A stretch of 45,599 bases of DNA from positions 1 to 45,599 of IMG/VR virus record IMGVR_UViG_3300020594_000001; one strand, 5' to 3'. Source of the DNA: a virus (lineage: Duplodnaviria; Heunggongvirae; Uroviricota; Caudoviricetes). The notes under the pieces were generated by a model. That model ran no database searches and was not told where the DNA came from. It saw only the letters and a list, made by a program, of their open reading frames with translations. Shown here piece after piece: positions 2,841 to 42,554 of the stretch (the stretch's first letter is position 1; each line of letters begins with the position of its first letter). The translations under genes and the position numbers were made by a program.

Positions 2841-2854
2841 AGTGAGTATTTACT
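2841..2854. promoter_or_regulatory. Palindromic operator copy (AGTGAGTATTTACT)
   Basis: Degenerate match to the AGTRAGYRCTYACT consensus; intergenic. Confidence 0.6.
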
Positions 2855-2868
2855 TACGGTATCGGATA

Positions 2869-3936
2869 TCACCCGCGTGCTAATCCAGAACGAAGTGACA
2901 TACGCAAGGTGACTGCGCTCTGCTGGGTAAGCGGCGTTGCCCTGTAGAACGCCTGGCGAACGACTTCGGTAGGCACCTCGTTGGGGTCTTTACCTGGGGG
3001 CAAGATGGCGATTCGAACCGTCAACCCGACTGATCGGGCGTGGAGCCCTGCTTTGATGGCGTCTTCGATTGCTGCAAATTCGCCGTCCCACATGATCGTG
3101 AGCTCTTCCAGCCCGCGCTCTTTGAGCATTCTCAGCTTGTCTAGCTGGCCCAGGGCTAGGTGCTTGCCAAAGCTGCCTATGGGCACCACGTCGCGCAGGT
3201 CTGGGTCTTCATCCAGGGCGATCTTTGCCGCGATCACGTCAAACACCCCCTCGCACAGCAGCGCGCGTCGTGTGCGAGCGACGTTGTGTGCGTTGAATAG
3301 GTGTTCGCCCGTGGATGCGAAGCCAATGGGGAAGAGGTATTTCTTCTCAGCGGTGCCAGTGGTGTCGCGCCCCTGAAAAGAGACCAACTCACCATTGATG
3401 TCGTAAATCGGGATGATGACCCGGTTCGTGTAGTCGACCACAAAGTCGCCCGCGTCCCAGAACGCATCTTTGCTGTAACGAAGGTGAAAATAGCGGGTGG
3501 CGTCCTTCGTTATGCCACGACGGGTGAGGTAGGCAAGGTTGCGGTCGCCCACGGGTAACTCAAACGACTCGGGCAGCACCAGACGCTTCGATTCGTTGCT
3601 TACAGCGAGCGCCTTACGGGCGGGACGCCAGCCGATCTCGCGCCCGACCTGCAGAATGTGTTCATCGAGTCCCTTGCCGCCAAGCCCAGAACTGGCCCGT
3701 ATGAAGCTGAAGCGGTTGAACTTCGCCTCGCAGGAACCCGAGAAGCAATTCCCGAGTCCCGTGTCTTGATTAAGAAATACCTTCCATTTGGAAGTGCCGC
3801 AGACCGGACAGGTTCTGATGTTGTATTGAGCGCCAGAACTACCATGGGTTTCGCGATACTCGACGCCCTCGCGGTCGAGGTATGCCCCGATGGGCAGTGC
3901 GTCAAGAACCTCGGCAACTTCAGGGTTTAAGGCCAT
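2869..3936 (-). CDS. DNA primase (zinc-binding domain plus TOPRIM)
   Basis: N-terminal CPVC...C..C, TOPRIM motifs LCEGVFD and WDGE, and a PGKDPNE tail motif. Confidence 0.9.
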   Translation of the reverse strand: MALNPEVAEVLDALPIGAYLDREGVEYRETHGSSGAQYNIRTCPVCGTSKWKVFLNQDTGLGNCFSGSCEAKFNRFSFIRASSGLGGKGLDEHILQVGREIGWRPARKALAVSNESKRLVLPESFELPVGDRNLAYLTRRGITKDATRYFHLRYSKDAFWDAGDFVVDYTNRVIIPIYDINGELVSFQGRDTTGTAEKKYLFPIGFASTGEHLFNAHNVARTRRALLCEGVFDVIAAKIALDEDPDLRDVVPIGSFGKHLALGQLDKLRMLKERGLEELTIMWDGEFAAIEDAIKAGLHARSVGLTVRIAILPPGKDPNEVPTEVVRQAFYRATPLTQQSAVTLRMSLRSGLARG

Positions 3937-4159
3937 TGCGGATCTTTTCTGCTATGTCGTGCTCGAACTGCGCCCGAACGCGTCTATTGCGCGCCCGCAA
4001 GTGTTCAAGCTCTTTACGGTCGACCGACATGCGCCACCCGGCAAACCCGATCACAGAAGCGGCCACCGCAATTGACCCAATCAGGATGGCGAACGTCCAT
4101 AGTAGAAATTGCGCGTAGCCTGCGATAAGCCACTTCAGAAATTCAATTACCGCGTCCAT
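3920..4159 (-). CDS. Small membrane protein (79 aa; start revised to MDAVIEF)
   Basis: Long hydrophobic N-terminal segment followed by a charged helix; overlaps both neighbouring genes. Confidence 0.6.
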   Translation of the reverse strand: MDAVIEFLKWLIAGYAQFLLWTFAILIGSIAVAASVIGFAGWRMSVDRKELEHLRARNRRVRAQFEHDIAEKIRNGLKP

Positions 4160-4343
4160 CCGACTTGCTCTCCAATTTGTGCGCTTCAAGCGCGGCATCC
4201 AACAGGTCTTTAAGCATGCGCTCCCGCTCGGTAGGCTTATCGTCCCTGCGACATACGAGAATCAGCACCGTGAAGATGCCGATTACCGTAAGCGCCATGG
4301 GAACCATGATGAATGCCAAGTTCCAATCGATTCCGCCGCCCAT
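4143..4343 (-). CDS. Small single-pass membrane protein (66 aa)
   Basis: Hydrophobic stretch LAFIMVPMALTVIGIFTVLILV; the start overlaps the helicase stop (TAATG). Confidence 0.65.
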   Translation of the reverse strand: MGGGIDWNLAFIMVPMALTVIGIFTVLILVCRRDDKPTERERMLKDLLDAALEAHKLESKSDGRGN

Positions 4344-5725
4344 TACTCTTCCCCAATCACTTCTGAAATGAAGATCATTTTTTCTAAGTCCTGGGCAATG
4401 CGAAGAGAAAAGCCATCTTGCTGGTTACGGCACGCAGCAAAGAACAGGCGCGCTTGATTCAGCGACTTCTCTTCATCGGTCTTGTTGATCGAAATGACGA
4501 TGTCAGCGATACGAATCTTGTTGAAGTCTTCAGCGACATCAGTAGCGGTAGCGACCGCTTTCTTCGCGCCTTCCCGGTTCGTCTGGGTCGCGGTCAGAAT
4601 TGCCAAGTCTTCCTGCATCGCCAAGCCACGCAGGGCGACATAGACCGACTTGGAGTTCTCGATACCACTGTCGGTCACGCGCTCAGGCTGCATAAGGTCT
4701 GCGTAGTCGACAATGACGAGGTCGAAAACGATACCCTTGGCTTTGTATCGCTCCAGCAATCGACGCAGGTCAGAGACGCGCATGGAGCCCGTCGGGAACT
4801 CCTGAATGATGAATTTGCCCGCCTTGCTCATGTAGTCTTTGACAGCAGCCTTGACCGTATGAGTGTTCGTCCCTAGCTGGCTCATTGCGACTTCAGCGAT
4901 ATTCGCATCGACCCGCTCAGCCATGATCTTGGCGGCGACTTCCAACGTCACATAAAGCACGTTGTAGCGCTGCGCCGACCCCGCAGCGGCAATGCCAAAG
5001 TCCATCAAGGCGGTGGATTTCCCGCCCTTGGCGGGGGCCATCAGCACCGATAACTCGCGCTTCCCCCAGCCTCGGTGATACAGAAGCTTGTCGAGCTCCG
5101 GGTAGCCCGTCGTCACACCCGTGGGCGGCAACTTGCCCGCCGCGCGCAGTAAACGCTCTTCTGTGCGGGCATCGATCATTTCGCCATAGTCATATGCCCC
5201 GCCATCTTCGTTGCGCCCGACGTTTGCAGCTTTGGTGATCGCTTGCTCGATTCGGTCGAAATCACGCTTATCGAGATAGCCCACCGAATCGAGGATTGCA
5301 GCGCTGATCGCCTGGTGCTTTGCGAACTGGGCCACCTGCTCCACGACATATTCACGGTCTGAAATGTCGACCTGGAACAGCCCCTTCTCGCTCTTGTCAG
5401 CGACATAGCGCGCGCAACCCACCCCAAGTTCTTTCGTGAGGACTTTGTTGATGATGTCGTGCTTGATCAGGTCGCCGATGACAGCCTTGTCGCCCGGGCA
5501 CTTGCGATACTTGTCGAAATACCGCATAGCGATATTGACCAGTCCCGCGTTAGACTCAGATTCGAAATAGTCGGGGCGAATCAACCCCTCGGTTTGCTGC
5601 ATAAACGTCACGTCACGCAGACAAAGTGCCGCGATCTTGGTCTGAAATGCTTCGTCAAACTCGTAAAGCGGTGCTGGGGCGCTTGCCCCAGCGGCAACAC
5701 TAGCAGCTGGAAGTGCAGCACTCAT
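4343..5725 (-). CDS. dnaB: Replicative DNA helicase, DnaB-like (SF4)
   Basis: Walker A APAKGGKST, VTLE motif, VIVDYADL Walker B, ATQTNR, and AEDFNKIRIAD. Confidence 0.92.
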   Translation of the reverse strand: MSAALPAASVAAGASAPAPLYEFDEAFQTKIAALCLRDVTFMQQTEGLIRPDYFESESNAGLVNIAMRYFDKYRKCPGDKAVIGDLIKHDIINKVLTKELGVGCARYVADKSEKGLFQVDISDREYVVEQVAQFAKHQAISAAILDSVGYLDKRDFDRIEQAITKAANVGRNEDGGAYDYGEMIDARTEERLLRAAGKLPPTGVTTGYPELDKLLYHRGWGKRELSVLMAPAKGGKSTALMDFGIAAAGSAQRYNVLYVTLEVAAKIMAERVDANIAEVAMSQLGTNTHTVKAAVKDYMSKAGKFIIQEFPTGSMRVSDLRRLLERYKAKGIVFDLVIVDYADLMQPERVTDSGIENSKSVYVALRGLAMQEDLAILTATQTNREGAKKAVATATDVAEDFNKIRIADIVISINKTDEEKSLNQARLFFAACRNQQDGFSLRIAQDLEKMIFISEVIGEE

Positions 5726-5728
5726 TTG

Positions 5729-6076
5729 TTAGCCCTCCTTGGCGGCTACTTCAACCCCCTGGAAGAGCTCGATTGCATGCTTGAAGATTGTTACGGGTCG
5801 CTGCGATGACTCAGAAATAACGGTCACCGTGAACTTGTCGCGCGCCTTGATCGAACCACGAATCGTGTCGCCAGACACCAGCACAATTGCCACCATGGAC
5901 CCTTCTTTCTGGTGACGCTCCAGAATGGCGTCATGCCCCTTTGCCACAAAGGGCTTCTTCCCGCCGCCTTGCAGTTTGCCCGTAACGGGTGCTGGGCGAT
6001 TCACTGTTAACGTCCTGCGACGGTGCTCGGCAATCTGGTCTTGGCGAACCACTTCCACGGGGTCAGCTTTGTGCAT
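5729..6076 (-). CDS. hfq: Hfq-like (Sm-fold) RNA-binding protein with an N-terminal extension
   Basis: Sm1-like VAIVLVSGDTIRGSIKARDKF and Sm2 FKHAI (E. coli Hfq: [21 protein letters not shown] ... YKHAI). Confidence 0.8.
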   Translation of the reverse strand: MHKADPVEVVRQDQIAEHRRRTLTVNRPAPVTGKLQGGGKKPFVAKGHDAILERHQKEGSMVAIVLVSGDTIRGSIKARDKFTVTVISESSQRPVTIFKHAIELFQGVEVAAKEG

Positions 6077-6092
6077 GAAATATCCTGATTAA

Positions 6093-6106
6093 AGTAAGTG
6101 CTTACT
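6093..6106. promoter_or_regulatory. Palindromic operator copy (AGTAAGTGCTTACT) upstream of the hfq-like gene
   Basis: Matches the consensus. Confidence 0.7.
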
Positions 6107-6782
6107 ACAAATTATGGTGAAAAAAAGCCTGTTGAATTAAGTCAGCGCCAAAGTGTTCGATGGCAACTGACTCGGGGAGCATCTTGTCTTTATAGACAAG
6201 GCGGGCCAGAACCCGTGCGGGCGCAGGTCTGGCTTGGACCTGCTGAACCAAGTATAGGTAGTAGGCATCTTGCTCTGGCAGACCGCAATAATTCGCTGCC
6301 AGAAAGATCGGGCTCTTCGCCAGTTGAAGCGTTTGGCGCTTCGCTTCGAGCCATGCCACTTCGACGTCGAGCGATATGTCGTCGTCGAACAGCTGATTGG
6401 GTCTGGGCAGATAACGCCAGCCCCTTTGAAACATGCGGTCAAAAACGAACCGCAGATAGAATGGGTAGCGACAACCGATTCGATCTGCCTCTTGGCGGGC
6501 GCGCCAGAATTGAAGCAGTGCGCCCGACTTGAAAATATCGTCAGCCACACCCGCAACTTTCAGGGTCAGTGCAGCGCCCGCATCTTGCGTCTTGGCATAC
6601 TGTGCGCGGTATTGGCTGTCATAGGTCTTCACAAACAGCTGTGTCGCCCGCGATGGCAGCATGCGTCGGTAATCGAACCAGCGCAGCGAATAAAGCTCGG
6701 GCTCAAGCTCTCGAAACTGTGGCGGGACAAGCTTTAGTTCTTTCTCGACCAACTGGGCAAGATCGTCCAATTCAAACTCCAA
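6105..6782 (-). CDS. Hypothetical protein (225 aa), first gene of the replication operon
   Basis: Long ORF collinear with the operon; no recognised motif; TTG start. Confidence 0.75.
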   Translation of the reverse strand: MEFELDDLAQLVEKELKLVPPQFRELEPELYSLRWFDYRRMLPSRATQLFVKTYDSQYRAQYAKTQDAGAALTLKVAGVADDIFKSGALLQFWRARQEADRIGCRYPFYLRFVFDRMFQRGWRYLPRPNQLFDDDISLDVEVAWLEAKRQTLQLAKSPIFLAANYCGLPEQDAYYLYLVQQVQARPAPARVLARLVYKDKMLPESVAIEHFGADLIQQAFFHHNL

Positions 6783-6853
6783 ATAAAACTGTCACTGACT
6801 TTGTAGTCTTCTGGGTGCGGAACCCGCCCTTCCAGACCTAACAGCGAAACGGT

Positions 6854-6937
6854 TAGCCGCTGTCGTATAGAAAGATTTAAGGTTTTAGAAGTTCTTATTT
6901 AAGAGGGGATGCCAAAATCGTGCTAAGTAAAGTCCGG
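6854..6937 (-). repeat. Copy A of an ~85-bp element (ACTTAG-NN-CGATTTTGGCATCCCCTCT box, AT-rich tract, GCGGCTA)
   Basis: The 19-bp core at 6902-6920 is identical, in inverted orientation, to 36549-36567. Confidence 0.8.
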
Positions 6938-7012
6938 TGTCCGCTCACAGGAAGCAAGAATGGGCGCGGCTACAGCGAAGCGTCCACTCTTACTTTCTTT
7001 TAAATCAATGAC

Positions 7013-7750
7013 TTAATCTTCAGAGTATGCAGCGATAACTTCCGCAACGAACCCCGACCTCACAATGTCCTGACGGTCGAAGGTAATCACCTTTACGCTG
7101 GGGATGTGCTGGATGCGGTGCGCGGCGTCCAACAAGCCCGAATTGGGGATGTCTGTCTGGGCGGCATCGCCGTCAACCACGACTTTGCAGCCCTCCCCGA
7201 TACGGGTAAGAAAGAGCTTCATCTGGCCCGGGGTAGCGTTCTGCGCTTCGTCAAAGAGCACGAATGCGTTTCTGAACGTGCGGCCACGCATGAACGCCAG
7301 GGGAACCGCCTCGATCTTGCCCGCTTTCAGGAAATATTCTGTCGGTCCCTTGCCCAGGCGCTCGTAGAGGATTTCTTTTACGGGTGCCAAGTAGGGCTCA
7401 AACTTTTCCGCAAGCTCCCCTGGGAGAAAGCCAAACTCTTCTTCACTCTCGACTGCGGGACGCGTCACGATGATCTTGTCGACGCGGTGGCTTTCAAGCA
7501 TTTCTGCTGCAATGGAAGTTGCGATGTAGCTTTTGCCAGTGCCCGCTGGCCCCAGGCCAAAGGTGACATCAAAGTTCTTGATCGCGTTGATGTAGCGTTG
7601 CTGCTTGTCGTTCTGAGCAACCAGGGGCTCGACCGCGCGCTTGTGGGTCGCGGGGCGTTGCAGTTGCTCATGAAGGTCTTCATCGTTCGCTGCGACGCGC
7701 TTGCGATTCTGGGCCAGGGTAGGGACTTTACGTTTAATGCTGCGGGCCAT
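7013..7750 (-). CDS. phoH: PhoH family ATPase
   Basis: GPAGTGKS, RPAVE, FGFLPG, RGRTF, DEAQN, TRIGEG and GDAAQ motifs. Confidence 0.95.
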   Translation of the reverse strand: MARSIKRKVPTLAQNRKRVAANDEDLHEQLQRPATHKRAVEPLVAQNDKQQRYINAIKNFDVTFGLGPAGTGKSYIATSIAAEMLESHRVDKIIVTRPAVESEEEFGFLPGELAEKFEPYLAPVKEILYERLGKGPTEYFLKAGKIEAVPLAFMRGRTFRNAFVLFDEAQNATPGQMKLFLTRIGEGCKVVVDGDAAQTDIPNSGLLDAAHRIQHIPSVKVITFDRQDIVRSGFVAEVIAAYSED

Positions 7751-7776
7751 ATGTGCTACCTATGGGAGTGGGGAAC

Positions 7777-8094
7777 TCAGGGCTGGACGCCAAACCTCTT
7801 CATTTGGTCTGCGATGGCTTGGTTAATCCAGTCGATTTTCTCGTTGTCGCGAATCTGAAGGTCGCGGTATTGCTTCTTTAGCGCTGTGTATGCGCGTGAT
7901 AGCGTTGATAGGCGCACTTTCCCGTCCTGGCCCGGGACGATGGTGGGCGCGTCAGCGCTACGCTCCATAGCGCTGACGGGCGCTACGAGGATCGACTCTT
8001 TAGGGGGTTGCGTTGAGCAGCCGCACAAGATCGCTACTAAGCACAGGGTCACCAGGACAAGCCATGGCGGGACCGTTACCGGAGGGCGGTTCAT
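7777..8094 (-). CDS. Outer-membrane spanin (Rz1-like lipoprotein); start revised to MNRPP
   Basis: Hydrophobic signal ending in lipobox LCG-C; overlaps the Rz-like gene in another frame. Confidence 0.7.
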   Translation of the reverse strand: MNRPPVTVPPWLVLVTLCLVAILCGCSTQPPKESILVAPVSAMERSADAPTIVPGQDGKVRLSTLSRAYTALKKQYRDLQIRDNEKIDWINQAIADQMKRFGVQP

Positions 8095-8392
8095 CTTCTG
8101 TGGTCTCAACTAAGGAAGAAAGTGAATCGAACTGCGCTTGGTTGAACGCGAAGAACTCTGCGTTCTGACGCAATGCATCGTTTACTCGGGCTTCGCGCTG
8201 CGCAGCGTTGGCGACGACCCGAATGTCTGTCTGGCGTGCTTCTTGCAGCGCACGGGTGTTCGCCGCGTCGACGAACCGCCCCTTTGTATAGAATCCAGAG
8301 CCAAACCCAATGGCGAGCGCTACAGCGCCCACGATCAAGGCAGTCTTCAGTGCCGGGAGTTTTAGGGTGCTAAGAATCATCTTTTTTTCCAC
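8000..8392 (-). CDS. Inner-membrane spanin (Rz-like)
   Basis: N-terminal TM helix, helical periplasmic domain and a C-terminal Cys; last genes of the lysis cassette. Confidence 0.7.
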   Translation of the reverse strand: MEKKMILSTLKLPALKTALIVGAVALAIGFGSGFYTKGRFVDAANTRALQEARQTDIRVVANAAQREARVNDALRQNAEFFAFNQAQFDSLSSLVETTEDEPPSGNGPAMACPGDPVLSSDLVRLLNATP

Positions 8393-8693
8393 CCAAGCGA
8401 TCAGACCAGCCCAGCGCTACACGTCGAATGAACTCGGGAATGCTGGCTTGGATCGCGTCAAGTGCGTAGCCACCTACCGCTCCACCGCCCAGGCCGATCA
8501 CAGCTGCCATGGCAAGATGCGCGTCATGGGCAAAGCGGGCAGCAGCTGCAGCTGCGAATATCTCACCCACCAGCAGATTCACAACACCTTCGGAGAGACG
8601 GGGCTTTGCGCCCTCGCGGGTGAAGTTGCGCGCAGAACCCACCGCCCCGCCGACGAGCGCGACCAGAATCTGGGGGGTGAGCAATTCATTCAT
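8370..8693 (-). CDS. Holin/antiholin-like membrane protein (107 aa; start MNELLTP)
   Basis: Two to three hydrophobic helices and a charged C-tail (RLGGKKDDS); lies in the lysis cassette. Confidence 0.65.
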   Translation of the reverse strand: MNELLTPQILVALVGGAVGSARNFTREGAKPRLSEGVVNLLVGEIFAAAAAARFAHDAHLAMAAVIGLGGGAVGGYALDAIQASIPEFIRRVALGWSDRLGGKKDDS

Positions 8694-9133
8694 TAGGTGC
8701 CCTTCTTGGCGCACTCATTGATGATCTTGCGACCGACAACGAAGCAAAGCAGCGATAACTGGGGATACAGCACCATGGCGGTGGTCAAGGGCGGGTATGC
8801 AGCGACAAAGCCCACGCTCACAAGCGCCCAAACCAGTGAAGAGAGAAATAGCGAGTAACCGCCCAGGAAGCGGGCATTTATCTTGTGACTAAAGATGCCC
8901 ACTATGGACATGAGCGACATTGCAAAGAACGCAGCTGCAGTCAAGCTCAAGGGCAATATGCCGAAAGCCCAGTAGGTCGATGTTTCGAACATGCGGGGGT
9001 CGACTATGGCAGCGATCCCCCACGACATAAATAAGGTTGCGTTGAAGACTTCGAACACACGGGTTTTGGTAGCAAAAAGCCACTCGATACCCGATTCGAA
9101 GAGGTTGTCAAAGAAGGTGAGAATTCCGTTCAT
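8693..9133 (-). CDS. Holin-like multi-pass membrane protein (146 aa; start MNGILTF)
   Basis: About four predicted TM segments; directly after the endolysin; TAATG coupling to the next gene. Confidence 0.65.
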   Translation of the reverse strand: MNGILTFFDNLFESGIEWLFATKTRVFEVFNATLFMSWGIAAIVDPRMFETSTYWAFGILPLSLTAAAFFAMSLMSIVGIFSHKINARFLGGYSLFLSSLVWALVSVGFVAAYPPLTTAMVLYPQLSLLCFVVGRKIINECAKKGT

Positions 9134-9143
9134 GCTTTGCCCC

Positions 9144-9712: not shown

Positions 9713-9742
9713 ATTTTAAGTAAGCACTCACTTACACTTCAA
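9713..9742 (-). promoter_or_regulatory. Sigma70-like lysis promoter (TTGAAG-18-TAAAAT) with an operator (9719-9732) in the spacer
   Basis: -35 at 9737-9742, -10 at 9713-9718; operator AGTAAGCACTCACT. Confidence 0.65.
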
Positions 9743-9749
9743 GCGAAGC

Positions 9750-15769: not shown

Positions 15770-15783
15770 AGTGAGTGCTCACA
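15770..15783. promoter_or_regulatory. Palindromic operator copy (AGTGAGTGCTCACA)
   Basis: 13 of 14 positions match the consensus. Confidence 0.6.
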
Positions 15784-15830: not shown

Positions 15831-15860
15831 AGTGTAAGTGAGCTCTTACTTACATTTCAA
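15831..15860 (-). promoter_or_regulatory. Sigma70-like promoter (TTGAAA-18-TACACT) with an operator (15837-15850) in the spacer
   Basis: -35 at 15855-15860, -10 at 15831-15836. Confidence 0.6.
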
Positions 15861-27065: not shown

Positions 27066-27087
27066 GGGGCTCGACCAAGCGAGCCCC
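27066..27087. other. GC-rich hairpin between major tail and chaperone genes
   Basis: GGGGCTCG-ACCAAG-CGAGCCCC; no U-tract on the coding strand. Confidence 0.5.
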
Positions 27088-27096: not shown

Positions 27097-27110
27097 AGTA
27101 AGCGCTTACT
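27097..27110. promoter_or_regulatory. Palindromic operator copy, perfect palindrome (AGTAAGCGCTTACT)
   Basis: Extends to a 16-bp palindrome at 27096-27111. Confidence 0.75.
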
Positions 27111-27673: not shown

Positions 27674-27687
27674 AGTGAGTGCTCACT
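27674..27687. promoter_or_regulatory. Palindromic operator copy (AGTGAGTGCTCACT), followed on the minus strand by TACATT
   Basis: Consensus match upstream of the major tail gene. Confidence 0.7.
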
Positions 27688-30611: not shown

Positions 30612-30644
30612 ATAAAAAGGGGTATGGCGCGAACCATACCCCTT
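30612..30644 (-). terminator. Rho-independent terminator after the major capsid gene
   Basis: 11-bp stem AAGGGGTATGG/CCATACCCCTT, then TTTATT on the minus strand. Confidence 0.8.
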
Positions 30645-30656: not shown

Positions 30657-30670
30657 AGTGAGTGCTTACT
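30657..30670. promoter_or_regulatory. Palindromic operator copy (AGTGAGTGCTTACT) between the capsid stop and the terminator
   Basis: Consensus match. Confidence 0.7.
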
Positions 30671-31603: not shown

Positions 31604-31685
31604 AGATTACTCCTTGGAAATTGCTCGTTAATCGGTAAACCAATCAACTCACTCAATTCCCTTAGAGCAAGCTATACAGGACAAA

Positions 31686-31738
31686 ACTATACAACAAAAG
31701 TGCCGAAATTGCAAGTGAGCGCTCACTTGCAATCTCGG
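31686..31738 (-). promoter_or_regulatory. Capsid promoter (TTGCAA-17-TATAGT) with a 26-bp perfect palindrome (31708-31733) containing the operator
   Basis: -10 at 31686-31691, -35 at 31709-31714; palindrome ATTGCAAGTGAGCGCTCACTTGCAAT. Confidence 0.72.
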
Positions 31739-32674: not shown

Positions 32675-34357
32675 TCAGGTCGCTTGTTTGACCGTTTTGT
32701 TCGCCAAGCTGTTGGTAGCAGCTTTCTCGAACTCTTTCTGCTGGCCCGTAGCTTTGGCGGATGTGCCACCATCTGCCACCTCAACCTTCGGGGGCCAAGT
32801 TGCAATCTCTTTCTTCATCTTTTCCAGCAAGTCTGCTTTAAGCTGCGGGAAAAGCTTGTTGATTAGCGCCATCATCTGCTCGCGCCGCACCGAATCTGGC
32901 GCAGCTATCAGAGACAGGTTGCTCGCGATGCTGAATTCGTCACGCAAGCCCCTGACGTCAAAGTTGTCTGGGTAAGAGACGAACCGCTTGCTTTCGTCGA
33001 TGGTTTCGTTGTTCCAGCGCGCGACAAACCGCACCAGCTTGGCTTCAATAAGCTCAAGCGAGTCAGCTTTGGCGGCGAGCATCGAATTGACGCGCTCAAA
33101 GTCGTAAGCCTTGGCGACACCGGAAGAGTTATCGATCCCTGCGCCGTTGTCGTCTTTGGTGCGCTCGCCAGACAAGCCCGTCGTGTGGTAAATCTCAGCA
33201 ATGATCTTGTTGATCACCTGCAAGATGACCTCAGCTTGCTTAACGTCTGGGCTAATGAACTGAGGCGGACTGCCCGCTTCGGGGTTGTAAGTGAAGATGC
33301 GGCTAGTGCCAAGCTCGACCATCTTTTCTTGAACCGTCTTTTCTTGCACCAAGACGCTGTCGTCGTGGCTGACACCGCCAGCAGGTATTACCAGTTGAGA
33401 GAACGTCTGGTCTTGAATGATCGCGTCCAGGTTTGACAGGTAGTTGGCAACCGCCCGGTCGAGGTATGCGACATCATCGATCATCGAGCGAGACCAGTAG
33501 AGCTCGTCTGAAATGATGTTGTCGCCACTGAAGACGGGAACTTGCCCGAACCCGTGCGGGACCGGGTCATTAATCTCGATACGGAGACCTGTTGCAGAAA
33601 CGCCACTGGGGTCGATTGTGCCGACATGGCCCGTGCGCCCTGCATTGATTTCCGCAACCGCAGCACGGGTGCCTGGGTTCGACTGCATACCCGCGTCTAC
33701 CGTGAAGATGGTCGACTGATGTCGCTCCCACAACCGATACCTGCTGATCATGAGGCCGGTCGAGTTCAGCGGGTCTTCGTCGTCACGAACCTGCTCATGA
33801 ATCAGAATCCAGTTGAGCTCGTTCGATTCGTCGTAGCTCATGTCTAGCACGTTGATAGGGTCAACGATATAGGCATACGTGCGAACGCCCGCCTTGCGCT
33901 CATCAGCAAGCGTTGCAACCGCTTCGCTCTTGTTCGTGTCGACCACAACCCAGATACGCCCCTGGCGCGACGTGCGGTTTGACACCTGCTTCATGAAGTC
34001 TCGAATATCCAGCCCGTTCAGCGTCGCGTTCTTCCAGAACTTTTTGACCGATTCGGGCACATCTTCGCTACGCTCGATGGGCATTTTGAAGAGGTATTTG
34101 TCAACCAAATCAACCACTTCACGAGTGTGATTGAAGCGATACGCGCGCTTGACTCGGTCTTTGTATTCGGTATCGCCCTCTTTGAGGTATTTGAAGATGT
34201 TGTCGCCAGTGAACCACTCGCGCCCACCCTTATAGGTGGCATCGAGAAATTCCCAGTGAGAAGACAAGCGTTCATACTCAGGGTGACGCCTGCTGATGAA
34301 GGAGACGACCTTTTTGGTCTGTGCGTTACGCGATTCGCGTCGAGAAGTTTTCTTCAT
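32675..34357 (-). CDS. Portal protein
   Basis: 560 aa directly after TerL; Y.GG.E...Y..R.KRAYRFNHT...VD and SGVAKAYDF motifs. Confidence 0.88.
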   Translation of the reverse strand: MKKTSRRESRNAQTKKVVSFISRRHPEYERLSSHWEFLDATYKGGREWFTGDNIFKYLKEGDTEYKDRVKRAYRFNHTREVVDLVDKYLFKMPIERSEDVPESVKKFWKNATLNGLDIRDFMKQVSNRTSRQGRIWVVVDTNKSEAVATLADERKAGVRTYAYIVDPINVLDMSYDESNELNWILIHEQVRDDEDPLNSTGLMISRYRLWERHQSTIFTVDAGMQSNPGTRAAVAEINAGRTGHVGTIDPSGVSATGLRIEINDPVPHGFGQVPVFSGDNIISDELYWSRSMIDDVAYLDRAVANYLSNLDAIIQDQTFSQLVIPAGGVSHDDSVLVQEKTVQEKMVELGTSRIFTYNPEAGSPPQFISPDVKQAEVILQVINKIIAEIYHTTGLSGERTKDDNGAGIDNSSGVAKAYDFERVNSMLAAKADSLELIEAKLVRFVARWNNETIDESKRFVSYPDNFDVRGLRDEFSIASNLSLIAAPDSVRREQMMALINKLFPQLKADLLEKMKKEIATWPPKVEVADGGTSAKATGQQKEFEKAATNSLANKTVKQAT

Positions 34358-34365
34358 GATCGCCT

Positions 34366-34394
34366 ATTGTAAGTGAGTGCTTACTTACATTCAA
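34366..34394 (-). promoter_or_regulatory. Sigma70-like portal promoter (TTGAAT-17-TACAAT) with an operator (34372-34385) in the spacer
   Basis: -35 at 34389-34394, -10 at 34366-34371. Confidence 0.72.
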
Positions 34395-36329: not shown

Positions 36330-36457
36330 GGCCGCCCCCAGCAGACGAAAAAATAGGGTCGGCATTGGAGGATTGCCGACCCTTTACACCGGAGCCTTCA
36401 TGCGTGACAGCGGAGGTCACCGCTGACAGAACACACTCTACCCGCTTCCCGAGAAAA

Positions 36458-36471
36458 AGTAAACACTTACT
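36458..36471. promoter_or_regulatory. Degenerate operator copy (AGTAAACACTTACT)
   Basis: 13 of 14 positions match the consensus; upstream of terS. Confidence 0.55.
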
Positions 36472-36531
36472 AACACTGTCAGCAAAAAAAAGACGCACAG
36501 GCTTAGCCGCGCCCACCCCTTCACCGGCTAA

Positions 36532-36617
36532 CAGGATTTCACTTAGGTCGATTTTGGCATCCCCTCTATATCTACAACCTTTCATTCTTTAAACCTTCTT
36601 TATTACGATCGCGGCTA
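36532..36617 (+). repeat. Copy B of the ~85-bp element
   Basis: ACTTAG-GT-CGATTTTGGCATCCCCTCT (36541-36567), AT-rich tract, TACGATCGCGGCTA; inverted relative to copy A. Confidence 0.8.
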
Positions 36618-36953
36618 CGCAGCTAGTCGCGGCGGCTCGAACTGATTCTGCATAGCCCTAAGTCCCAGCTTTGTAGGGATAATCAGGGCGTGGCGTCGAT
36701 CCCTTCGCTTTTCATATTCACGAACGATGAGTCTGCGAGACTCCAGTGCGCGCAGCGAGAACTGGATGCTGGCCTTGGTAGTGCGGTAGGTCAGAATTTC
36801 AAGCAGCTGGTCGATATCGAGTGGGCAGGGATTACCCTCGCTGTCGGTAGTCCCTGTAATAACCGCTGACAGGATCTGGTATTGCTTGTTGGTCAAGCGG
36901 TGGGGGTCGCCCGCAGCCAGCGTGCGCGTGGTTCGATACATGGAAATCGTCAA
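36615..36953 (-). CDS. Winged-helix DNA-binding protein (LexA-N/MarR-like)
   Basis: LTNKQYQIL...DIDQLLEIL...ASIQFSLRALESRRLIVR follows the LexA DNA-binding-domain pattern; no peptidase domain. Confidence 0.72.
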   Translation of the reverse strand: MTISMYRTTRTLAAGDPHRLTNKQYQILSAVITGTTDSEGNPCPLDIDQLLEILTYRTTKASIQFSLRALESRRLIVREYEKRRDRRHALIIPTKLGLRAMQNQFEPPRLAA

Positions 36954-37894
36954 GACGAAAACTCCCGATCAGTCAGTGCCAGGGGCTCATCGAGCCCTTG
37001 GCGATCAAACGCCAATAGCGGAATGCGGTCGGGTAGCGTTCTTCCCCGGTCGGGGTTTGGCCCCCAAATCCAATAGATGGTCGCGCCAAAGACAAGCTGC
37101 ACCGCTTGCTTGAGCACATATTCGATATCCAGCTGATTGACCCGGGACATGCCGTTATGCATCTTGTCGCCCGTCTTCTCCATCGCGCTGATGGTGCGGT
37201 AGAACTTGCGCAGTCGCTCTTCCACGCGCTCACGAGTCTCAGGGGTCATGGCGCGTAGCTCTTCGAGCATCGCGGTCGTGTCAGACGGGTGGCTTTTGAA
37301 GTGGTGTCGAAAGAAGTCAACACCCTTCTCTTGCGCGCCCGGGGCCTCGGGGCGAATGAATTTCATCCCCGCTTTGATCGAGAACGGGTTGAACCGCCCC
37401 ATGGATGAGTTTGATTCGACGTGCGTGCAGCCACTCTTGGCGCAATACATGCGGTAAGCGAGGTTTTTGAACCGATACGCGATGCCCGCAGACCGATACA
37501 TCGTGTCAATGACGGTGCGGTTGTTCCAAGTCAAAAAGCGGTTCACGATCTGCATACGCCGCTTATTCATCAGCTTGGTGTCTTTGCCCCCGCTCTGGTT
37601 CTGTTTCAAGTGGGGGAACACCCGCGAGCGACCCTTGTTCAGCACCATGGGGTTGCCATAGACCAGCACGCCAATAAGCTCTGTAGGGCCATCTTTTGGC
37701 GCATAGACGCACCGCATAAAGCGCGGTGCTGCGGCAAGCGTGTGCCCCTTGTAATGAAGCTCACACAGGGCGTCCCAGTCGCGTTTGTCGCCCCACTCGA
37801 CGTAGACGTCTTTCAGAATGGACAGCGTGTGCTGGCCCGCGCCTTGAACGCGCGTTATTCGAATGTCGTCGGTTTGCAGAATCACCTCAGTCAT
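36950..37894 (-). CDS. GNAT-fold acetyltransferase (ABC-ATPase-associated type); start MTEVILQ
   Basis: LHYKG, RTVIDTMYRSAGIA (acetyl-CoA motif A-like) and SSMGRFNPFSIKAGM. Confidence 0.7.
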   Translation of the reverse strand: MTEVILQTDDIRITRVQGAGQHTLSILKDVYVEWGDKRDWDALCELHYKGHTLAAAPRFMRCVYAPKDGPTELIGVLVYGNPMVLNKGRSRVFPHLKQNQSGGKDTKLMNKRRMQIVNRFLTWNNRTVIDTMYRSAGIAYRFKNLAYRMYCAKSGCTHVESNSSMGRFNPFSIKAGMKFIRPEAPGAQEKGVDFFRHHFKSHPSDTTAMLEELRAMTPETRERVEERLRKFYRTISAMEKTGDKMHNGMSRVNQLDIEYVLKQAVQLVFGATIYWIWGPNPDRGRTLPDRIPLLAFDRQGLDEPLALTDREFSS

Positions 37895-38141
37895 CCCAGC
37901 TTTCCCTAGACCTCTTAGGAATCGAATGACCCCGCGCGCGAGCCCAGTCCAGCACATGCTGGCGCATGATCTTGGTTTCTTGCTTGGGGCCATAGCCCAT
38001 TTCGCTGATCACGTCGAGCGCTTGGTCAAAAAGCTCGTAATGTTCAGCGCACAGGGCGACCTTGCGCTCCTGCCCGTAGAAAACAACAGGCGGATGCGCG
38101 CAGTGGCTGTAACGACAGTAGGGCTTACCCAAGCTGCTCAT
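37887..38141 (-). CDS. Small Cys/His zinc-finger-like protein (84 aa; start MSSLGK)
   Basis: Cx4C-x16-Cx2H pattern; overlaps both neighbours. Confidence 0.62.
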   Translation of the reverse strand: MSSLGKPYCRYSHCAHPPVVFYGQERKVALCAEHYELFDQALDVISEMGYGPKQETKIMRQHVLDWARARGHSIPKRSRESWDD

Positions 38142-38358
38142 GGAGCCCCGGGAGTGTGCGCGCCAAAGCTGCTGCTGCCCCGCCCTGTGCACGAACCCAC
38201 TCGCCCACAAGACGCTTAGCCCCGTCAGGCTCGCCCTTAAGGAGAGCGGCTTTTGCTGCGCTCATACGTTCAAAGTGCTCGTCGCACAGGTTGATCGCGC
38301 CATCCTCGCTGACCTGGTGGACGGCATCGTGTTCGCACTTCATGTAAGTGCATTTCAT
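38125..38358 (-). CDS. Small Cys/His zinc-finger-like protein (77 aa; start MKCTYMKC)
   Basis: Cx4C-x16-Cx2H pattern; ATGA coupling to the thioredoxin gene. Confidence 0.62.
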   Translation of the reverse strand: MKCTYMKCEHDAVHQVSEDGAINLCDEHFERMSAAKAALLKGEPDGAKRLVGEWVRAQGGAAAALARTLPGLHEQLG

Positions 38359-38642
38359 ACAATCACCCCCCACTTGCGAAGGTGGTTCTCAAGAATGGGC
38401 AGCGCCTGCGCGCCCACGAATATGCCCAGACGCTCGCCGTGTTCGTTGACCCCAATACAAGTTGGGGCAACCCTGATCGCGTTGGCGTCGAATTCGCCCT
38501 TGGTTTGCTCTGAATACTCGATTACGCGAAGCTTGAACTGGTGCTGCGCTTGCAGCTTGACCATGTTGGGCTTGAGTTGCTTGCACGGCCCGCATGTGGG
38601 CGATGTAAACAGAATCACTTCGATGTTGGGGTTAGCAGCCAT
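38355..38642 (-). CDS. Thioredoxin-family protein
   Basis: Active site TCGPC and cis-Pro loop VAPT. Confidence 0.88.
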   Translation of the reverse strand: MAANPNIEVILFTSPTCGPCKQLKPNMVKLQAQHQFKLRVIEYSEQTKGEFDANAIRVAPTCIGVNEHGERLGIFVGAQALPILENHLRKWGVIV

Positions 38643-38645
38643 GTC

Positions 38646-39368
38646 TTACATCACCTTCAGCAGGAGTTCATTGATATATGCGGGCGTTACCGCTTGCTGT
38701 TCAGCCAGCTTGGCCGCGTTCTCGATCGCTTCTACGCGCAACTTTTCGCGGTAGCGCTTTTCAATCACCAAATCGGGCGACAGGTCAGCCACGAGGTCGG
38801 TATGGGTGGTTGCTACCAGCAGCGTGACCCCGAGACGTCGAGCCAGCTTCTGAAGCGAATACGAAATAACCTTGGCTGCGGTGCGATCAAGCACCGCCAT
38901 GAATTCGTCAGCGACCCAAACCTTGGCGTTCTGCTCAATCGCCAGGGCCAAGCGAAAGCGATAGCGCTGCCCGTCTGAAAGCTCAGAGGGGCGGCGGGCA
39001 TAGAGGTATGCGTCGTTGATTCCCACCGCTGACAACAGCTTGATGGCTTCGTTAGTGTCTTTGCCCAGCGAGTCGATGATGGGTTTGTCTTGCAGTTGGG
39101 TCGAGTTGATGTTGGACACAACCAAGCCGCGTTCATGCATCTGGCGCTCAAGAGCGAACAGCAGCTGCGATTTGCCCGAGCCAGACTGCCCTGTGATGTA
39201 GACGATGTCGCCCTGCTTTACCTGTAGCTCCAGGTTGTCGAAAACAACGAACTCTTTGTCGTCAAGTCCGATACCGAACGCTTCGGCAATCTCAAGCACA
39301 CGGGCGGTGCGCTCCACACGCGTGTCAAAGCGCACATCAATAAGGTAATTTTCACTTACGCCACCCAT
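38646..39368 (-). CDS. Soluble ABC-type ATPase
   Basis: Walker A GQSGSGKS, signature LSDGQ, Walker B VADEF, H-loop TTH; no partner permease. Confidence 0.9.
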   Translation of the reverse strand: MGGVSENYLIDVRFDTRVERTARVLEIAEAFGIGLDDKEFVVFDNLELQVKQGDIVYITGQSGSGKSQLLFALERQMHERGLVVSNINSTQLQDKPIIDSLGKDTNEAIKLLSAVGINDAYLYARRPSELSDGQRYRFRLALAIEQNAKVWVADEFMAVLDRTAAKVISYSLQKLARRLGVTLLVATTHTDLVADLSPDLVIEKRYREKLRVEAIENAAKLAEQQAVTPAYINELLLKVM

Positions 39369-40060
39369 TACGCCACCTTTGCGTGCTCGCGGGCGAACTG
39401 TAGGAATGCGTCTTCGCCCACCAACCCCGTCTGGGCTTCAATCTGAGCCATGAATCGCGTCACAATAATGGCTTCGTTACCCGAAACGCTCTTGAATCCC
39501 AGCAGCTTTGCGATGGTGATGCGCTTTTCGCCCGCCCCCTCGATGCGTTCGTCCAGTTGCTCCATCTGCTCGCGCACCGCACCCGCCAAATCGTTCTCAA
39601 AGACGTCGTCGTTGGTGCTCATCAGGTCGGCGATCGCAAAGTCGAGCTCTTTCTTCTCGAAAATGCCCTCCAGGTCCAGCGCAAGCTCGGGAAACTCCAG
39701 CAACTGTTGCTCTAAGATGTCGCTATCGAGGTCGGTTTGGGCGACGCGATTGTCAGCCCAGCGAAACGCACGCGCTTGCTCAGCGGTCAGGTCTTGCTCG
39801 ACCGAAACGGGCACATGCTTAAGCCCCAGTAGCTGCGCTGCAAGACGACGCCCGTGACCCGCAATAATGACCCCGTCGCGGTCGACCAGAATGGGGTTAC
39901 CGCGCCAGCCAAACTTGCGTATGGACTCAGCCAGCTTCTGGGTGCTCTTGTCGTCGTGCTTTTTCCCATTATCTGGATAGGGAGTCAGCGAATCGACGTC
40001 CCGAAGCTCGGGGGGATTCAGATTCAGTTTGACCTGGGATTTCTGCGTCTTCTTTGTCAT
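39368..40060 (-). CDS. ParB/Srx N-terminal domain protein
   Basis: LTPYPDN.K.H, SIRKFGW..PILVDRDGVIIAGHGRRLAA and ADNR motifs. Confidence 0.88.
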   Translation of the reverse strand: MTKKTQKSQVKLNLNPPELRDVDSLTPYPDNGKKHDDKSTQKLAESIRKFGWRGNPILVDRDGVIIAGHGRRLAAQLLGLKHVPVSVEQDLTAEQARAFRWADNRVAQTDLDSDILEQQLLEFPELALDLEGIFEKKELDFAIADLMSTNDDVFENDLAGAVREQMEQLDERIEGAGEKRITIAKLLGFKSVSGNEAIIVTRFMAQIEAQTGLVGEDAFLQFAREHAKVA

Positions 40061-40284
40061 GCAGCCCTCTTGATGGGAAACAGGACGCTGGCATTAGGAA
40101 AATCTGCAAAGGCTGGGGCTGACGAGTCTCCGAAGCGCGCCCTGGCCCGCTCCAGCGGGCTTTTGACGGCCTGGCTAGACATGACGTCTTCGGGCTCCCA
40201 CATGTCTGCGTCCTCGCACTCTTCGCAGATGGCGGGCTCGACCTTGTAGAAGGCGCAGCTTTCGCAATCGTCATACTTAGGCAT
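40057..40284 (-). CDS. Small Cys4 metal-binding protein (75 aa; start MPKYDDC)
   Basis: CESC...CEEC; GGGG Shine-Dalgarno; overlaps both ParB genes. Confidence 0.62.
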   Translation of the reverse strand: MPKYDDCESCAFYKVEPAICEECEDADMWEPEDVMSSQAVKSPLERARARFGDSSAPAFADFPNASVLFPIKRAA

Positions 40285-40942
40285 TTCGCCCCCGAAGTAG
40301 GTGCACCAGGGCGTCGCCCGCGTTGGCAAGGGAATCGCCCCCTGTGAAGCCCTGTGACTTCATGGTCGCTTCGATCAGCTTTTCGATGGCGGGCGCATCG
40401 CCCAGGGGCACTTTGAATCGCATGATCTGCGAGGTGGGCGCAGCGGGCACTAAGTCTTCCAGCGACCCTTCGTTCTTGGCGTCAGGCATGCCAAGCTCGT
40501 CCAGGTCGATGTCGGTGGCCGAGAATATCTCGTCAAACTCAGCCCCTGTGTAGGGTAAGAACGTGGAAAGCTCGTCAACATTGCCAAGGCCCTTGAGTAG
40601 CGATGCGAGCTCCAGGGTGTCGTCTTCGCCATAGCGCCCATTGTCAACCAGGCCAATCTCTTTGGCGGTTTTGTCGTCGATGCTGCCCAGATTGATGACC
40701 GGCACCGTCGCAAATCCCATGCGGGCGGCAACTTGCCAGCGGTGCTGACCACCGAGTATTTCAAGAAAGTCGCTGTCGTCCTGGTCTCGGACGATCAGCG
40801 GTCTGACAAAACCGAAGCGGGACAAGCTCGCCTCGATCTTGGCTTCATTCTCAGGGCTGACGTGGTTCGTGTTCCACGGGTTCGGTCGAAGAATCTCGAC
40901 CGGCACATGGCTCATCACCAGTTGCTTGCTTTTTCTGCTCAT
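40277..40942 (-). CDS. ParB/Srx N-terminal domain protein (second)
   Basis: LRPNPWNTN, SLSRFGFVRPLIVR, ILGGQHRW and DN.RYGEDD motifs. Confidence 0.88.
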   Translation of the reverse strand: MSRKSKQLVMSHVPVEILRPNPWNTNHVSPENEAKIEASLSRFGFVRPLIVRDQDDSDFLEILGGQHRWQVAARMGFATVPVINLGSIDDKTAKEIGLVDNGRYGEDDTLELASLLKGLGNVDELSTFLPYTGAEFDEIFSATDIDLDELGMPDAKNEGSLEDLVPAAPTSQIMRFKVPLGDAPAIEKLIEATMKSQGFTGGDSLANAGDALVHLLRGRNA

Positions 40943-40955
40943 GCGGTAAACTGTT

Positions 40956-40975
40956 AGTGAGTGCTTACTTACAAT
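40956..40975. promoter_or_regulatory. Operator (40956-40969) at the strand switch, followed by a TACAAT -10 element facing the helicase
   Basis: AGTGAGTGCTTACT-TACAAT in the 64-bp divergent intergenic region. Confidence 0.7.
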
Positions 40976-41006
40976 CTTATCTGAAACAGGCTCTTAGAGC
41001 AAGCAT

Positions 41007-42542
41007 ATGGCCCAAACAGTCACGATCGCCCACAACGCCGTTACCGCAAAACTGGTCAATGCGCCCCAGAAAGCGCAACTTCTTGTGCAAGAGGCGCTTA
41101 GCTACATGAGCGCCGGCGCAGAACACACCCCCGCATTCAAATCGCACCGCTGGGACGGCAGATCAACCTTCTTTGACCACGGCACGCAGACTTTCCCGCG
41201 CGGTTTTGTCCAGTATGTGCACGTTGCGCTGACCAAAGCGGGCTTTCAGACGCGAATCGTCAAAAAACCGCTGCCCGAACCGCTTGGCCCGGTCAATCCC
41301 ATAGTCGACGAGTTTGGCAACGACGACCCACGCTACGACTATCAGATGAAAACGGTCGAGTTGCTGCTTCGCCACGGGCAAATGATCGCCCAGGTAGCAA
41401 CGGGCGGGGGTAAGAGCAAGATCGCCAAGCTGGCGACCGCACGCATCAACCGCCCTACCCTCTTTCTGACCACGCGAAGCGTGCTGCTGCACCAGATGGC
41501 AAAGCAGTTCAAGAAAATGGGCAAGAAAGTGGCGATTTTGGGCGATGGCACGCTCCAAGTCTCAAAGGAAGTCACCTGCGCGATGACCCAAAGCGTCGCA
41601 GCATGGCTCAAAGACCCTGATTTGAAGAAGACGCCCCCGGGCTCAGAGAGCTATGAGCGCCAAATTGCCAAGCAAAAAAAGATGTCTGAAATTCTGTCGC
41701 GCTTTGAGCTTGTAATTCTCGAAGAGGCGCACGAAGTCAGTGGCGAGAGCTTCTTTGAAATCATGAAGTGCTGCCACAACGCGCATTACCGCTTGGCACT
41801 CACCGCAACCCCCTTCATGAAAGAAGATGAAGAGGCAAACATGCGCCTCATGGCGTCTGCGGGCCATGTGGGCATCCAAATCAGCGAAAAGCTGCTGATC
41901 GACCGGGGCATTCTTGCCAAGCCCTACTTCAAGTATGTGAAGCTGCCCGTGCCCGCTGCTAAGCTGTATCGTTCGTCACCCTATGCGCGCGCGGTCGAAC
42001 TGGGCATCGTTGGCTACGACTATCGAAACAAGTGCGCTACCGCTGAAGCAATGCGCGCAGCGCGCCATGGCTTAACCACGATGGTGCTGGTCAATCGAAA
42101 AGAGCATGGTGAAAGACTGGAAGACCTCATGACCCGCGCAGGTCTGCGGGTTCGGTTCATTCAGGGCAAGAACGAGCAAAGGGAGCGCGAAAACGCACTT
42201 TCTGCGCTCGGGCGGGGCGAAGTTGACGTTCTGATTGGCACCACTATTCTGGACGTGGGGGTCGACGTGCCCTCGGTGGGGGTTGTCATTCTCGCGGGTG
42301 GGGGCAAAGCTGAGGTTGCGCTACGCCAGCGCATTGGGCGTGGCTTGCGCGCCAAAAAGTATGGCCCTAACGTCTCGCTGATCGTCGACTTCGCTGACGA
42401 ACTGAACAATCACCTTCGCAACCACTACATTACGCGCAAGACCTTGGTCGAGACTACCCCGGGGTTTGGCGAGAACATTGTCGACGATTTCAACTACGCT
42501 GCACTGGGTTTTACTTTGCAGCGTGTGGCCGCAAGTGTATAG
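41007..42542 (+). CDS. Superfamily 2 helicase
   Basis: Motif I ATGGGKS, motif II variant LEEAH, III LTATP, V DVGVDVP, VI QRIGRGLR. Confidence 0.92.
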   Translation: MAQTVTIAHNAVTAKLVNAPQKAQLLVQEALSYMSAGAEHTPAFKSHRWDGRSTFFDHGTQTFPRGFVQYVHVALTKAGFQTRIVKKPLPEPLGPVNPIVDEFGNDDPRYDYQMKTVELLLRHGQMIAQVATGGGKSKIAKLATARINRPTLFLTTRSVLLHQMAKQFKKMGKKVAILGDGTLQVSKEVTCAMTQSVAAWLKDPDLKKTPPGSESYERQIAKQKKMSEILSRFELVILEEAHEVSGESFFEIMKCCHNAHYRLALTATPFMKEDEEANMRLMASAGHVGIQISEKLLIDRGILAKPYFKYVKLPVPAAKLYRSSPYARAVELGIVGYDYRNKCATAEAMRAARHGLTTMVLVNRKEHGERLEDLMTRAGLRVRFIQGKNEQRERENALSALGRGEVDVLIGTTILDVGVDVPSVGVVILAGGGKAEVALRQRIGRGLRAKKYGPNVSLIVDFADELNNHLRNHYITRKTLVETTPGFGENIVDDFNYAALGFTLQRVAASV

Positions 42543-42554
42543 TGAGCACTTACT
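42541..42554. promoter_or_regulatory. Palindromic operator copy (AGTGAGCACTTACT)
   Basis: Consensus match at the helicase stop codon. Confidence 0.7.

Follow-up and report, generated by a model that had tools for sequence, protein, structure and literature searches.

A palindrome repeated at gene starts of an SSU5/Nickievirus-like phage as the putative operator of a Cro/CI-type repressor

In this work, we analyse a 14-base palindrome, AGTRAGYRCTYACT, that is repeated along the siphophage genome recorded in IMG/VR as IMGVR_UViG_3300020594_000001 (109,599 bp, 55% G+C, CheckV 100%). The window, that is, the whole stretch of DNA from which the analysis started, is the first 45.6 kb of this record (45,599 nucleotides); positions beyond it are genome coordinates. 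In the comparisons, this genome (109.6 kb) is labelled G000, and labels such as G001, G005 and L139 denote relatives. The minus strand carries nearly all of the genes, and the gene content is that of a large temperate siphophage. Its genes encode DNA ligase, primase, a DnaB-type helicase, PhoH, Pol III alpha, ribonucleotide reductase (RNR) and SbcCD; further genes encode a UvsX-like recombinase, a gp32-like single-stranded DNA-binding protein, CobS/CobT, RtcB and an integrase, and the structural and packaging genes encode tail, capsid, portal and terminase proteins.

The phage belongs to a family of SSU5/Nickievirus-like siphophages and phage-plasmids of ~110 kb. Its capsid protein groups it with Stenotrophomonas phages ANB28 and BUCTxx99, Pseudomonas phage nickie and Rhizobium phages, and the same grouping also takes in SSU5, Cyrano and Klebsiella phage-plasmids. 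The closest prophage lies in a metagenome-assembled genome of Castellaniella (capsid identity 80%), and a megablast comparison of the window with phage records returned only a 41-bp chance match.

Nine exact copies of AGTRAGYRCTYACT lie in the window, where 100 shuffles gave an expectation of 0, and with up to one mismatch there are 13 copies against 0.06 expected (Table 1). These are the 13 copies, nine exact and four with one mismatch, that the initial annotation had listed; it had placed all of them at gene boundaries, and nearly all do lie between genes. Allowing a second mismatch adds only three matches (17065, 26440 and 30038; 1.18 expected), all within genes and probably due to chance. 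In the whole genome, 27 copies are found with up to one mismatch, or about one per 4 kb, against a single one for the reversed control. By a deliberately crude open reading frame (ORF) map, in which 92% of the genome counts as coding, 17 of the 27 are intergenic (binomial p about 1e-12); most of the other ten fall where the map has a spurious antisense ORF or extends a gene start too far. The network of sites is real and non-random, and its members lie on or beside gene-start promoters.

The shape of the palindrome also tells how it is likely to be read. Positions 1 and 14 are nearly invariant, and the purine at position 4 and the pyrimidine at position 11 vary independently of each other (A/C 9, A/T 9, G/T 4 and G/C 4). 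For this reason, the palindrome is best seen as two half-sites, each read by a protein; a hairpin of RNA or DNA, which would call for pairing covariation at positions 4 and 11, is ruled out.

Table 1. Copies of the palindrome in the window, with their context, and other features referred to in the text
Feature	Coordinates	Strand	Context
Site, one mismatch	2841..2854		between primase gene and next minus-strand gene (ATG 2783); on gene strand followed by ATAAAT; no recognisable -35
Site, exact	6093..6106		16 nt 5' of ATG at 6076, right after gene 6105-6782
Site, exact	9719..9732		18-bp spacer of minus-strand TTGAAG (9737-9742) / TAAAAT (9713-9718)
Site, one mismatch	15770..15783		second copy, 67 bp downstream of 15837 in common leader region
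Site, one mismatch	15837..15850		18-bp spacer of minus-strand TTGAAA (15855-15860) / TACACT (15831-15836)
Site, exact	27097..27110		between stop of major-tail gene and GC hairpin 27066-27087
Site, exact	27674..27687		followed by TACATT; 26 nt upstream of major-tail ATG (27648)
Site, exact	30657..30670		between capsid stop (30677) and terminator-like hairpin (30619-30642) with T-run
Site, exact	31714..31727		within 26-bp perfect palindrome; -48 to -35 of capsid promoter TTGCAA (31709-31714)-17-TATAGT (31686-31691)
Site, exact	34372..34385		17-bp spacer of portal promoter TTGAAT (34389-34394) / TACAAT (34366-34371)
Site, one mismatch	36458..36471		after T-run 3' of winged-helix gene; last 6 bases TTTACT are -35 of TTTACT-17-TAGAGT (36435-36440)
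Site, exact	40956..40969		64-bp divergent region; spacer of plus-strand helicase promoter TAAACT-17-TACAAT
Site, exact	42541..42554		overlaps helicase stop codon; plus-strand TTTGCA-17-TATAGT puts core at -9 to +4
MarR/PadR-like winged-helix protein, 112 aa	36615..36953	-	family core gene, universal
Operon headed by site 40956	36615..40942	-	two ParB_N proteins, two ABC/AAA-type ATPases, winged-helix gene
ParB_N protein	39368..40060		
ParB_N protein	40277..40942		
Sigma-70 region 2 domain protein, 227 aa	102364..103047	-	between CobS and Pol III alpha (L008:7364-8047)
Candidate repressor, 109 aa	106690..107019	+	between CobT and integrase; 61 kb past window end
215-aa protein	107025..107672	+	between candidate repressor and integrase; no family match
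Palindrome copy	107674		between 215-aa and 97-aa protein genes
97-aa protein	107718..108011	+	weak HTH_17 match (excisionase-like); between candidate repressor and integrase
Integrase	108008..109105		

The promoter context of the sites was checked base by base, with each site read on its gene strand. The sites overlap sigma70-type promoters in at least three registers, an arrangement that fits a repressor rather than a single activation geometry. In the first register, the core fills a 17-18-bp spacer between the two promoter hexamers; this is the case at 34372, 9719 and 15837, at 87541 beyond the window and, on the plus strand, at 40956. In the second, the core lies at the edge of the -35 hexamer (31714) or supplies that hexamer itself (36458). 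In the third, seen at 42541 (plus strand), 106608 and 106628, the core shares its first three bases with a TATAGT -10 and extends from -9 to +4. In addition, site 40956 lies at about +1, or just downstream of it, with respect to the minus-strand promoter TTGCTC (40997-41002)-17-TAAGAT (40974-40979), which serves the operon of ParB-like, ATPase and winged-helix genes.

The initial annotation had described the spacer layout at 9719, 15837 and 34372, and there the hexamers and the 17-18-bp spacers are confirmed. As a general rule, however, this layout holds for only three of the 13 window sites (plus 40956 on the plus strand); at the rest, the core is at the -35, at the -10/+1 region or beside no detectable promoter. 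The TANNNT hexamers that it had noted after 27674 and 40956 exist as TACATT and TACAAT, but the one at 40956 is on the plus strand and faces the helicase gene. Activation in the style of MerR, which it had offered as an option, is unsupported and can be ruled out because the spacers are of 17-18 bp, with no over-long spacer of 19 bp.

Several sites show further details. At the portal promoter, the ATG follows the TACAAT -10 by just 8 nt (34355-34371), so that the transcript would be leaderless or nearly so. The order of stop codon, site, GC hairpin and next gene occurs three times, after the capsid gene (30657), the major-tail gene (27097) and the RNR gene (85194), the last with its hairpin at about 85160-85190. 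The spacer-type sites (9720, 15834, 34369 and genome 87542) carry a nested outer palindrome, GTAAG-N6-CTTAC (TGTAAGTRAGYRCTYACTTACA), which amounts to two half-sites per side with a 4-bp offset; it could admit two dimers or merely reflect the -10 flank. Finally, a 12-mer, GCTTGCTCTAAG, followed by GG or AG, occurs twice on the minus strand, in the capsid leader (31659-31672) and at the -35 of the promoter of the ParB-like operon (40991-41004). The capsid leaders of relatives contain a related 'ctctaag', and the 12-mer may be a second control element.

The palindrome is not peculiar to this genome. When viral contigs were searched for one exact 14-mer, most matches were due to chance, but the search yielded G001, a provirus of 104 kb that is syntenic with G000, with proteins 30-55% identical and no nucleotide similarity. 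G001 carries 35 copies of the palindrome; 13 of them precede small genes, at 25-30 nt from the start codon, and have a TATAGT that overlaps the core. For a broader survey, we used 20-kb loci around the capsid gene from about 90 relatives. The dominant repeated palindrome in these loci is AGTCA-N4-TGACT (TAAGTCAC-NN-GTGACTTA); lineage variants have AATCA, AGTAA or AGTTAC, L190 has TGTAT (palindrome TATGTATGTACATACATA), and the form in SSU5 and Cyrano is GGTAAG-YR-CTTACC. In relatives that lack the canonical motif, k-mer counting returned only coding k-mers, and in the literature that we searched, no published description of the motif was found.

Not only the motif but also its placement is conserved. 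Two positions are occupied throughout the family, namely the one before the -35 of the capsid promoter and the one between the capsid stop codon and its terminator; the -48 to -35 architecture upstream of the capsid gene recurs in relatives, and the order of stop, site and hairpin after that gene is found in most of them. A site orthologous to 40956 is present in SSU5. Two observations on individual relatives may be added. The post-capsid site of relatives is flanked by a full promoter (e.g. TTGTGA-17-TAGAAT), whose predicted start is at the foot of the terminator hairpin. In L250 (ENA contig k141_155995, 48% G+C), which has a winged-helix protein 68% identical to that of G000, the orthologous divergent region contains TAATTAAC-CA-GTTAATTA instead of the AGTAAG form, so that the otherwise invariant G2 is changed.

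The relatives also allow the registers to be counted. Among 143 AGTCA-type sites, a strong sigma70 promoter is found on the sense strand in 76 and on the antisense strand in 8. At 33 sites the core begins at -48/-50, at 19 its first base falls within the spacer (-29 to -25), and at 20 it falls between -5 and +10; G000 has a similar mixture of registers. The promoters concerned are near the consensus (TTGACA-17-TAnnnT), and all three registers fall inside the footprint of RNA polymerase. Positions over +1 and spacers of 17-18 bp do not fit activation, and because no single activator geometry accommodates all of the registers, repression by occlusion offers a unified reading of them. As for the origin of the binder, three host genomes with such an element have 11/11, 23/23 and 7/8 of their copies on the phage contig. 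Since the copies are nearly confined to phage contigs, the binder should be phage-encoded rather than a factor of a host regulon, which we reject as an explanation.

On balance, and with modest confidence, we favour the reading that the palindrome is the operator of a dimeric phage repressor, most likely the Cro/CI-type helix-turn-helix (HTH) protein of 109 aa encoded at 106690-107019. The initial annotation had named, besides the winged-helix protein, any repressor outside the window, and such a repressor turns out to be the better candidate. Its ORF contains an obvious HTH, its gene is divergent from almost all others, and two operators 20 bp apart, 106608 and 106628, overlap divergent TATAGT promoters at that gene. 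When Cyrano protein CYRAN_45 is compared with G000, this ORF is its best match (E 0.008). Clear homologues of CYRAN_45 occur in G001, G005 and G007 (E 1e-11 to 1e-14), and 12 of 13 further relatives proved to have a member of the family; where the phage contig of a host genome had been identified (four genomes, G009-G012), the best match is always on that contig. Of four members compared with Pfam, three match HTH_3 (best E 6.6e-9), and the family profile weakly matches the 434 repressor and C.BclI, along with 434-repressor-like chains. Most of these relatives have cognate sites no more than a few hundred bp from the repressor gene, and in Cyrano they lie in the intergenic region of the repressor, although none was found within the 3-kb loci of G014 and G016. 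The palindrome and the repressor are missing together from G013 and phage nickie.

The identity of the binder is suggested by covariation between the recognition region of this protein and the half-site. The pattern K-P-N-(I/M/V)-x-(S/T)-M is found in 10 of 10 genomes with (A/G)(G/A)TCA half-sites, whose hosts span alpha-, beta- and gamma-proteobacteria, and in none of the seven genomes with other half-sites. In these seven, the region reads SHSAIWQY (G000), GHVTISHF (the Castellaniella sister), NSNFLTLL (G001), NANNLSLI (Cyrano), Q-NMVSFI (G007) and QANAFVLL (L190), and L139 gives a weak match. G001 and Cyrano have in common both the GTAAG half-site and K-N-x-N-x-L-(T/S)-L. On a quick capsid tree, the seven represent six or seven lineages that are not sisters where visible. 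The transcriptome of Escherichia coli LF82 lysogenic for Cyrano points in the same direction, in that CYRAN_45, annotated as 'putative repressor', is expressed at 95.8 against a background median of 9.8, and the capsid gene (7.4), like other lytic genes, stays at the background level (PMC9928086, S1 table).

Several points weigh against this assignment. The similarity between the G000 candidate and CYRAN_45 is weak (25% identity, E 0.008), and the candidate has no Pfam match, being below the threshold, so that it is placed in the family by alignment alone. The covariation table comprises 17 genomes, counted with no formal correction for phylogeny, and its L139 row is a weak match. SSU5 has 17 copies of the motif yet no detectable homologue of the candidate, a situation that could reflect recent loss in a plaque-forming isolate. 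In addition, the 109-aa protein is without a cleavage domain, and about half of the G000 sites have no recognisable -35.

One protein that the initial annotation had named for binding tests is the winged-helix protein at 36615-36953; as the binder, it might act as a global temporal regulator of the lytic phase, repressing or activating from some of the registers. We consider this rather unlikely, although it has points in its favour. The fold is a real MarR-like one: the AF2 model (pLDDT 83) has MepR, MarR and PadR as top structural matches and superposes on MepR, AbsC, MexR and MarR with TM about 0.6 and rmsd about 2 A; its homologues bear the names MarR or winged-helix and contain PF13463. 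No other core gene near the packaging module encodes a classical transcription-factor fold, and the operon of the winged-helix gene begins 14 nt past site 40956. At residue 47, AGTCA-type genomes have L and all five independent AGTRA lineages have I or M; in roughly 2,670 columns of nine proteins tested, no other column behaves in this way (L47 against AGTCA count, 21/3 versus 3/15). The identity of the helix follows the site count (rho 0.74, against 0.52 for the rest of the protein), and in nickie the helix has diverged and the motif is absent. A homodimer prediction (score 0.09, mark 0.42) is not evidence either way. However, the homologues of SSU5, Cyrano and Klebsiella keep L47 and the helix TTKQSxQFSIRAL though the motif there is GGTAAG-YR-CTTACC and not AGTCAC, and the gene is kept in G013 and nickie, where the motif is absent. 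Moreover, neither the homologue CYRAN_123 nor any part of its operon exceeds background in Cyrano lysogens (7.8 vs 9.8; PMC9928086, S1 table), and for this reason the protein cannot maintain silencing there. It is probably a regulator of the lytic cycle.

A quite different reading takes the palindrome with its adjacent -10 as an activator-dependent promoter box that replaces the -35 and switches on lytic genes. Phage P1 offers a model, since its late genes use the activator Lpa rather than C1 and its late promoters have a box at -22. Many G000 sites do have the core followed directly by TATAAA, TATACT or TACAAT with no -35, in a register fixed within 1 bp, and the core of the spacer-type sites is centred near -20, close to the P1 box. 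Nevertheless, we regard such a switch as improbable. The promoters that can be recognised have good -35 hexamers (TTGAAT and TTGCAA; TTGACA in relatives) at optimal spacing; the core is also found at -48 to -35, at -9 to +4 and past +1, which excludes a single activation geometry; and palindrome sites are present in the repressor/lytic switch region as well.

The host nucleoid-occlusion factor SlmA deserves separate mention, because the core of the palindrome, GTRAGYRCTYAC, equals the E. coli SlmA site GTGAGTACTCAC together with its tolerated degeneracy. In the 12-bp SlmA site, G1, T2, A4 and G5 are fixed, and a purine at position 3 and a pyrimidine at position 6 are tolerated (PMC3020112); the core agrees with this definition, including the degeneracy, and the same core is found in SSU5. 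The phage might therefore recruit or titrate SlmA, or use it as a co-regulator. Of 26 genomes sampled from the family to which the nearest host, Castellaniella, belongs, 7 have SlmA, a patchy distribution. Against such a role, which we consider very unlikely, most relatives have AGTCAC, which breaks two SlmA-critical positions, and SlmA-positive hosts (Massilia, Paraburkholderia and Piscirickettsiaceae) carry phages with this variant, which is not a SlmA-binding site (SBS). The host assemblies of Castellaniella and L139 yielded no SlmA, alpha-proteobacterial hosts are without it, and its presence in the hosts of relatives does not follow the motif variant. Furthermore, positions 1 and 14, which lie beyond the 12-bp site, are nearly invariant, and the sites are on promoters at a density of about one per 4 kb, unlike those of E. 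coli, and are replaced by a cognate non-SBS variant in most relatives and in SlmA-free hosts. SlmA is hence a low-probability second function and not the primary binder. There is a small chance, in our estimation, that the operator was independently shaped into a perfect SlmA site in G000, G001, the Acinetobacter-type phages and the enterobacterial SSU5 group, where the roughly 27 copies per genome would do double duty by docking the repressor and, in hosts with SlmA, loading this division inhibitor onto the phage DNA. If this were true, prophage copy number or lytic replication would be coupled to a block of cell division.

Least probable among the protein-binding alternatives, to a degree that we regard as remote, is that the sites are KorB/Noc-like loading sites for the two ParB_N proteins. 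Their N-terminal domain matches ParB, Noc and KorB by sequence and by model, and a structure comparison brought up PDB 8qa8 and 8qa9 (KorB entry). The KorB operators (OB) of plasmid RK2 are likewise palindromes dispersed over a plasmid, often just upstream of the -35, and the dispersed palindromes of G000 just 5' of a -35 recall KorB class I operators on a plasmid-like replicon. Nevertheless, unlike KorB, the G000 proteins lack a basic HTH segment: the part that aligns with the HTH of ParB is acidic, with almost no Lys or Arg, throughout the family. No column of their alignment tracks the motif variant, and their operon is silent in Cyrano lysogens. Apart from this question, the ParB_N proteins are products of family core genes; they conserve the motifs GGEHR and DNGRYG, are acidic in the middle segment and end in a two-helix domain, and their genes sit with the two ABC/AAA ATPases just upstream of the packaging genes.

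Two polymerase-based readings can be dismissed briefly: for a T7-like promoter (suggested by CACTCACTATA within the motif), the 109.6-kb genome gave no match to PF00940 and has no unassigned ORF of sufficient size, and for a promoter of the phage's own sigma factor (102364-103047), G001 has more copies of the motif with the gene absent at that position, so that the sigma-70 region 2 protein is not needed for the palindrome system.

Returning to the Cro/CI-type repressor as the preferred binder, we can compare the proposed system with known ones. The C1 repressor of phage P1 has asymmetric 17-mer operators that are read by a monomer. The likeness would lie in one immunity repressor with many operators over a plasmid-prophage of ~100 kb, each on a separate promoter; here, in contrast, the site is a symmetric 14-bp palindrome, the HTH candidate has an unrelated fold of the Cro/CI type, and structural genes also carry the operator. 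The gp71-type repressor of mycobacteriophages L5 and Bxb1 uses operators together with about 30 'stoperators', which are asymmetric, orientation-dependent 13-mers. Both systems have dozens of copies in short intergenic regions, some of them promoterless, and the proposed one would share the single small HTH repressor and a specificity that evolves with it, but the G000 sites are symmetric and about half of them overlap recognisable promoters. With Cro/CI of 434 and lambda, the candidate would have in common its putative HTH_3 (XRE) class, the proposed binding of a dimer to a 14-bp palindrome and the tandem operators (106608/106628). The classical repressors, however, use two or three operator clusters together with antitermination cascades, whereas about 27 operators are spread here over all modules, and the candidate has no cleavable C-terminal domain.

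The circuit that best explains the motif network would have the logic of P1 C1 or L5, with a different protein and a symmetric site. In the prophage state, the repressor would occupy about 27 operators that overlap the RNA polymerase footprint of many sigma70-type promoters, and it would directly silence each of the replication, packaging, head, tail and lysis blocks. The promoter of the repressor itself is overlapped too, which would provide autoregulation, and operators with no promoter beside them, among them those that follow a stop codon and precede a hairpin, may serve as roadblocks or as cooperative partners. We infer binding, repression and the identity of the binder from comparative evidence, and it is such evidence that supports the earlier proposal of one dimeric phage regulator acting on many internal promoters in the manner of P1 C1, once its spacer rule, its MerR option and its winged-helix candidate have been corrected.

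Enterobacteria and many other Proteobacteria commonly harbour SSU5-like phage-plasmids, some of which carry resistance genes; in the literature that we searched, no description was found of the mechanism that keeps them silent. The present analysis offers a testable circuit for this, in which one small Cro/CI-type repressor and one operator family with lineage variants would directly repress dozens of sigma70 promoters, with no cascade in the style of lambda. In particular, the covariation table predicts the residues that set specificity, and thereby which elements should be hetero-immune.

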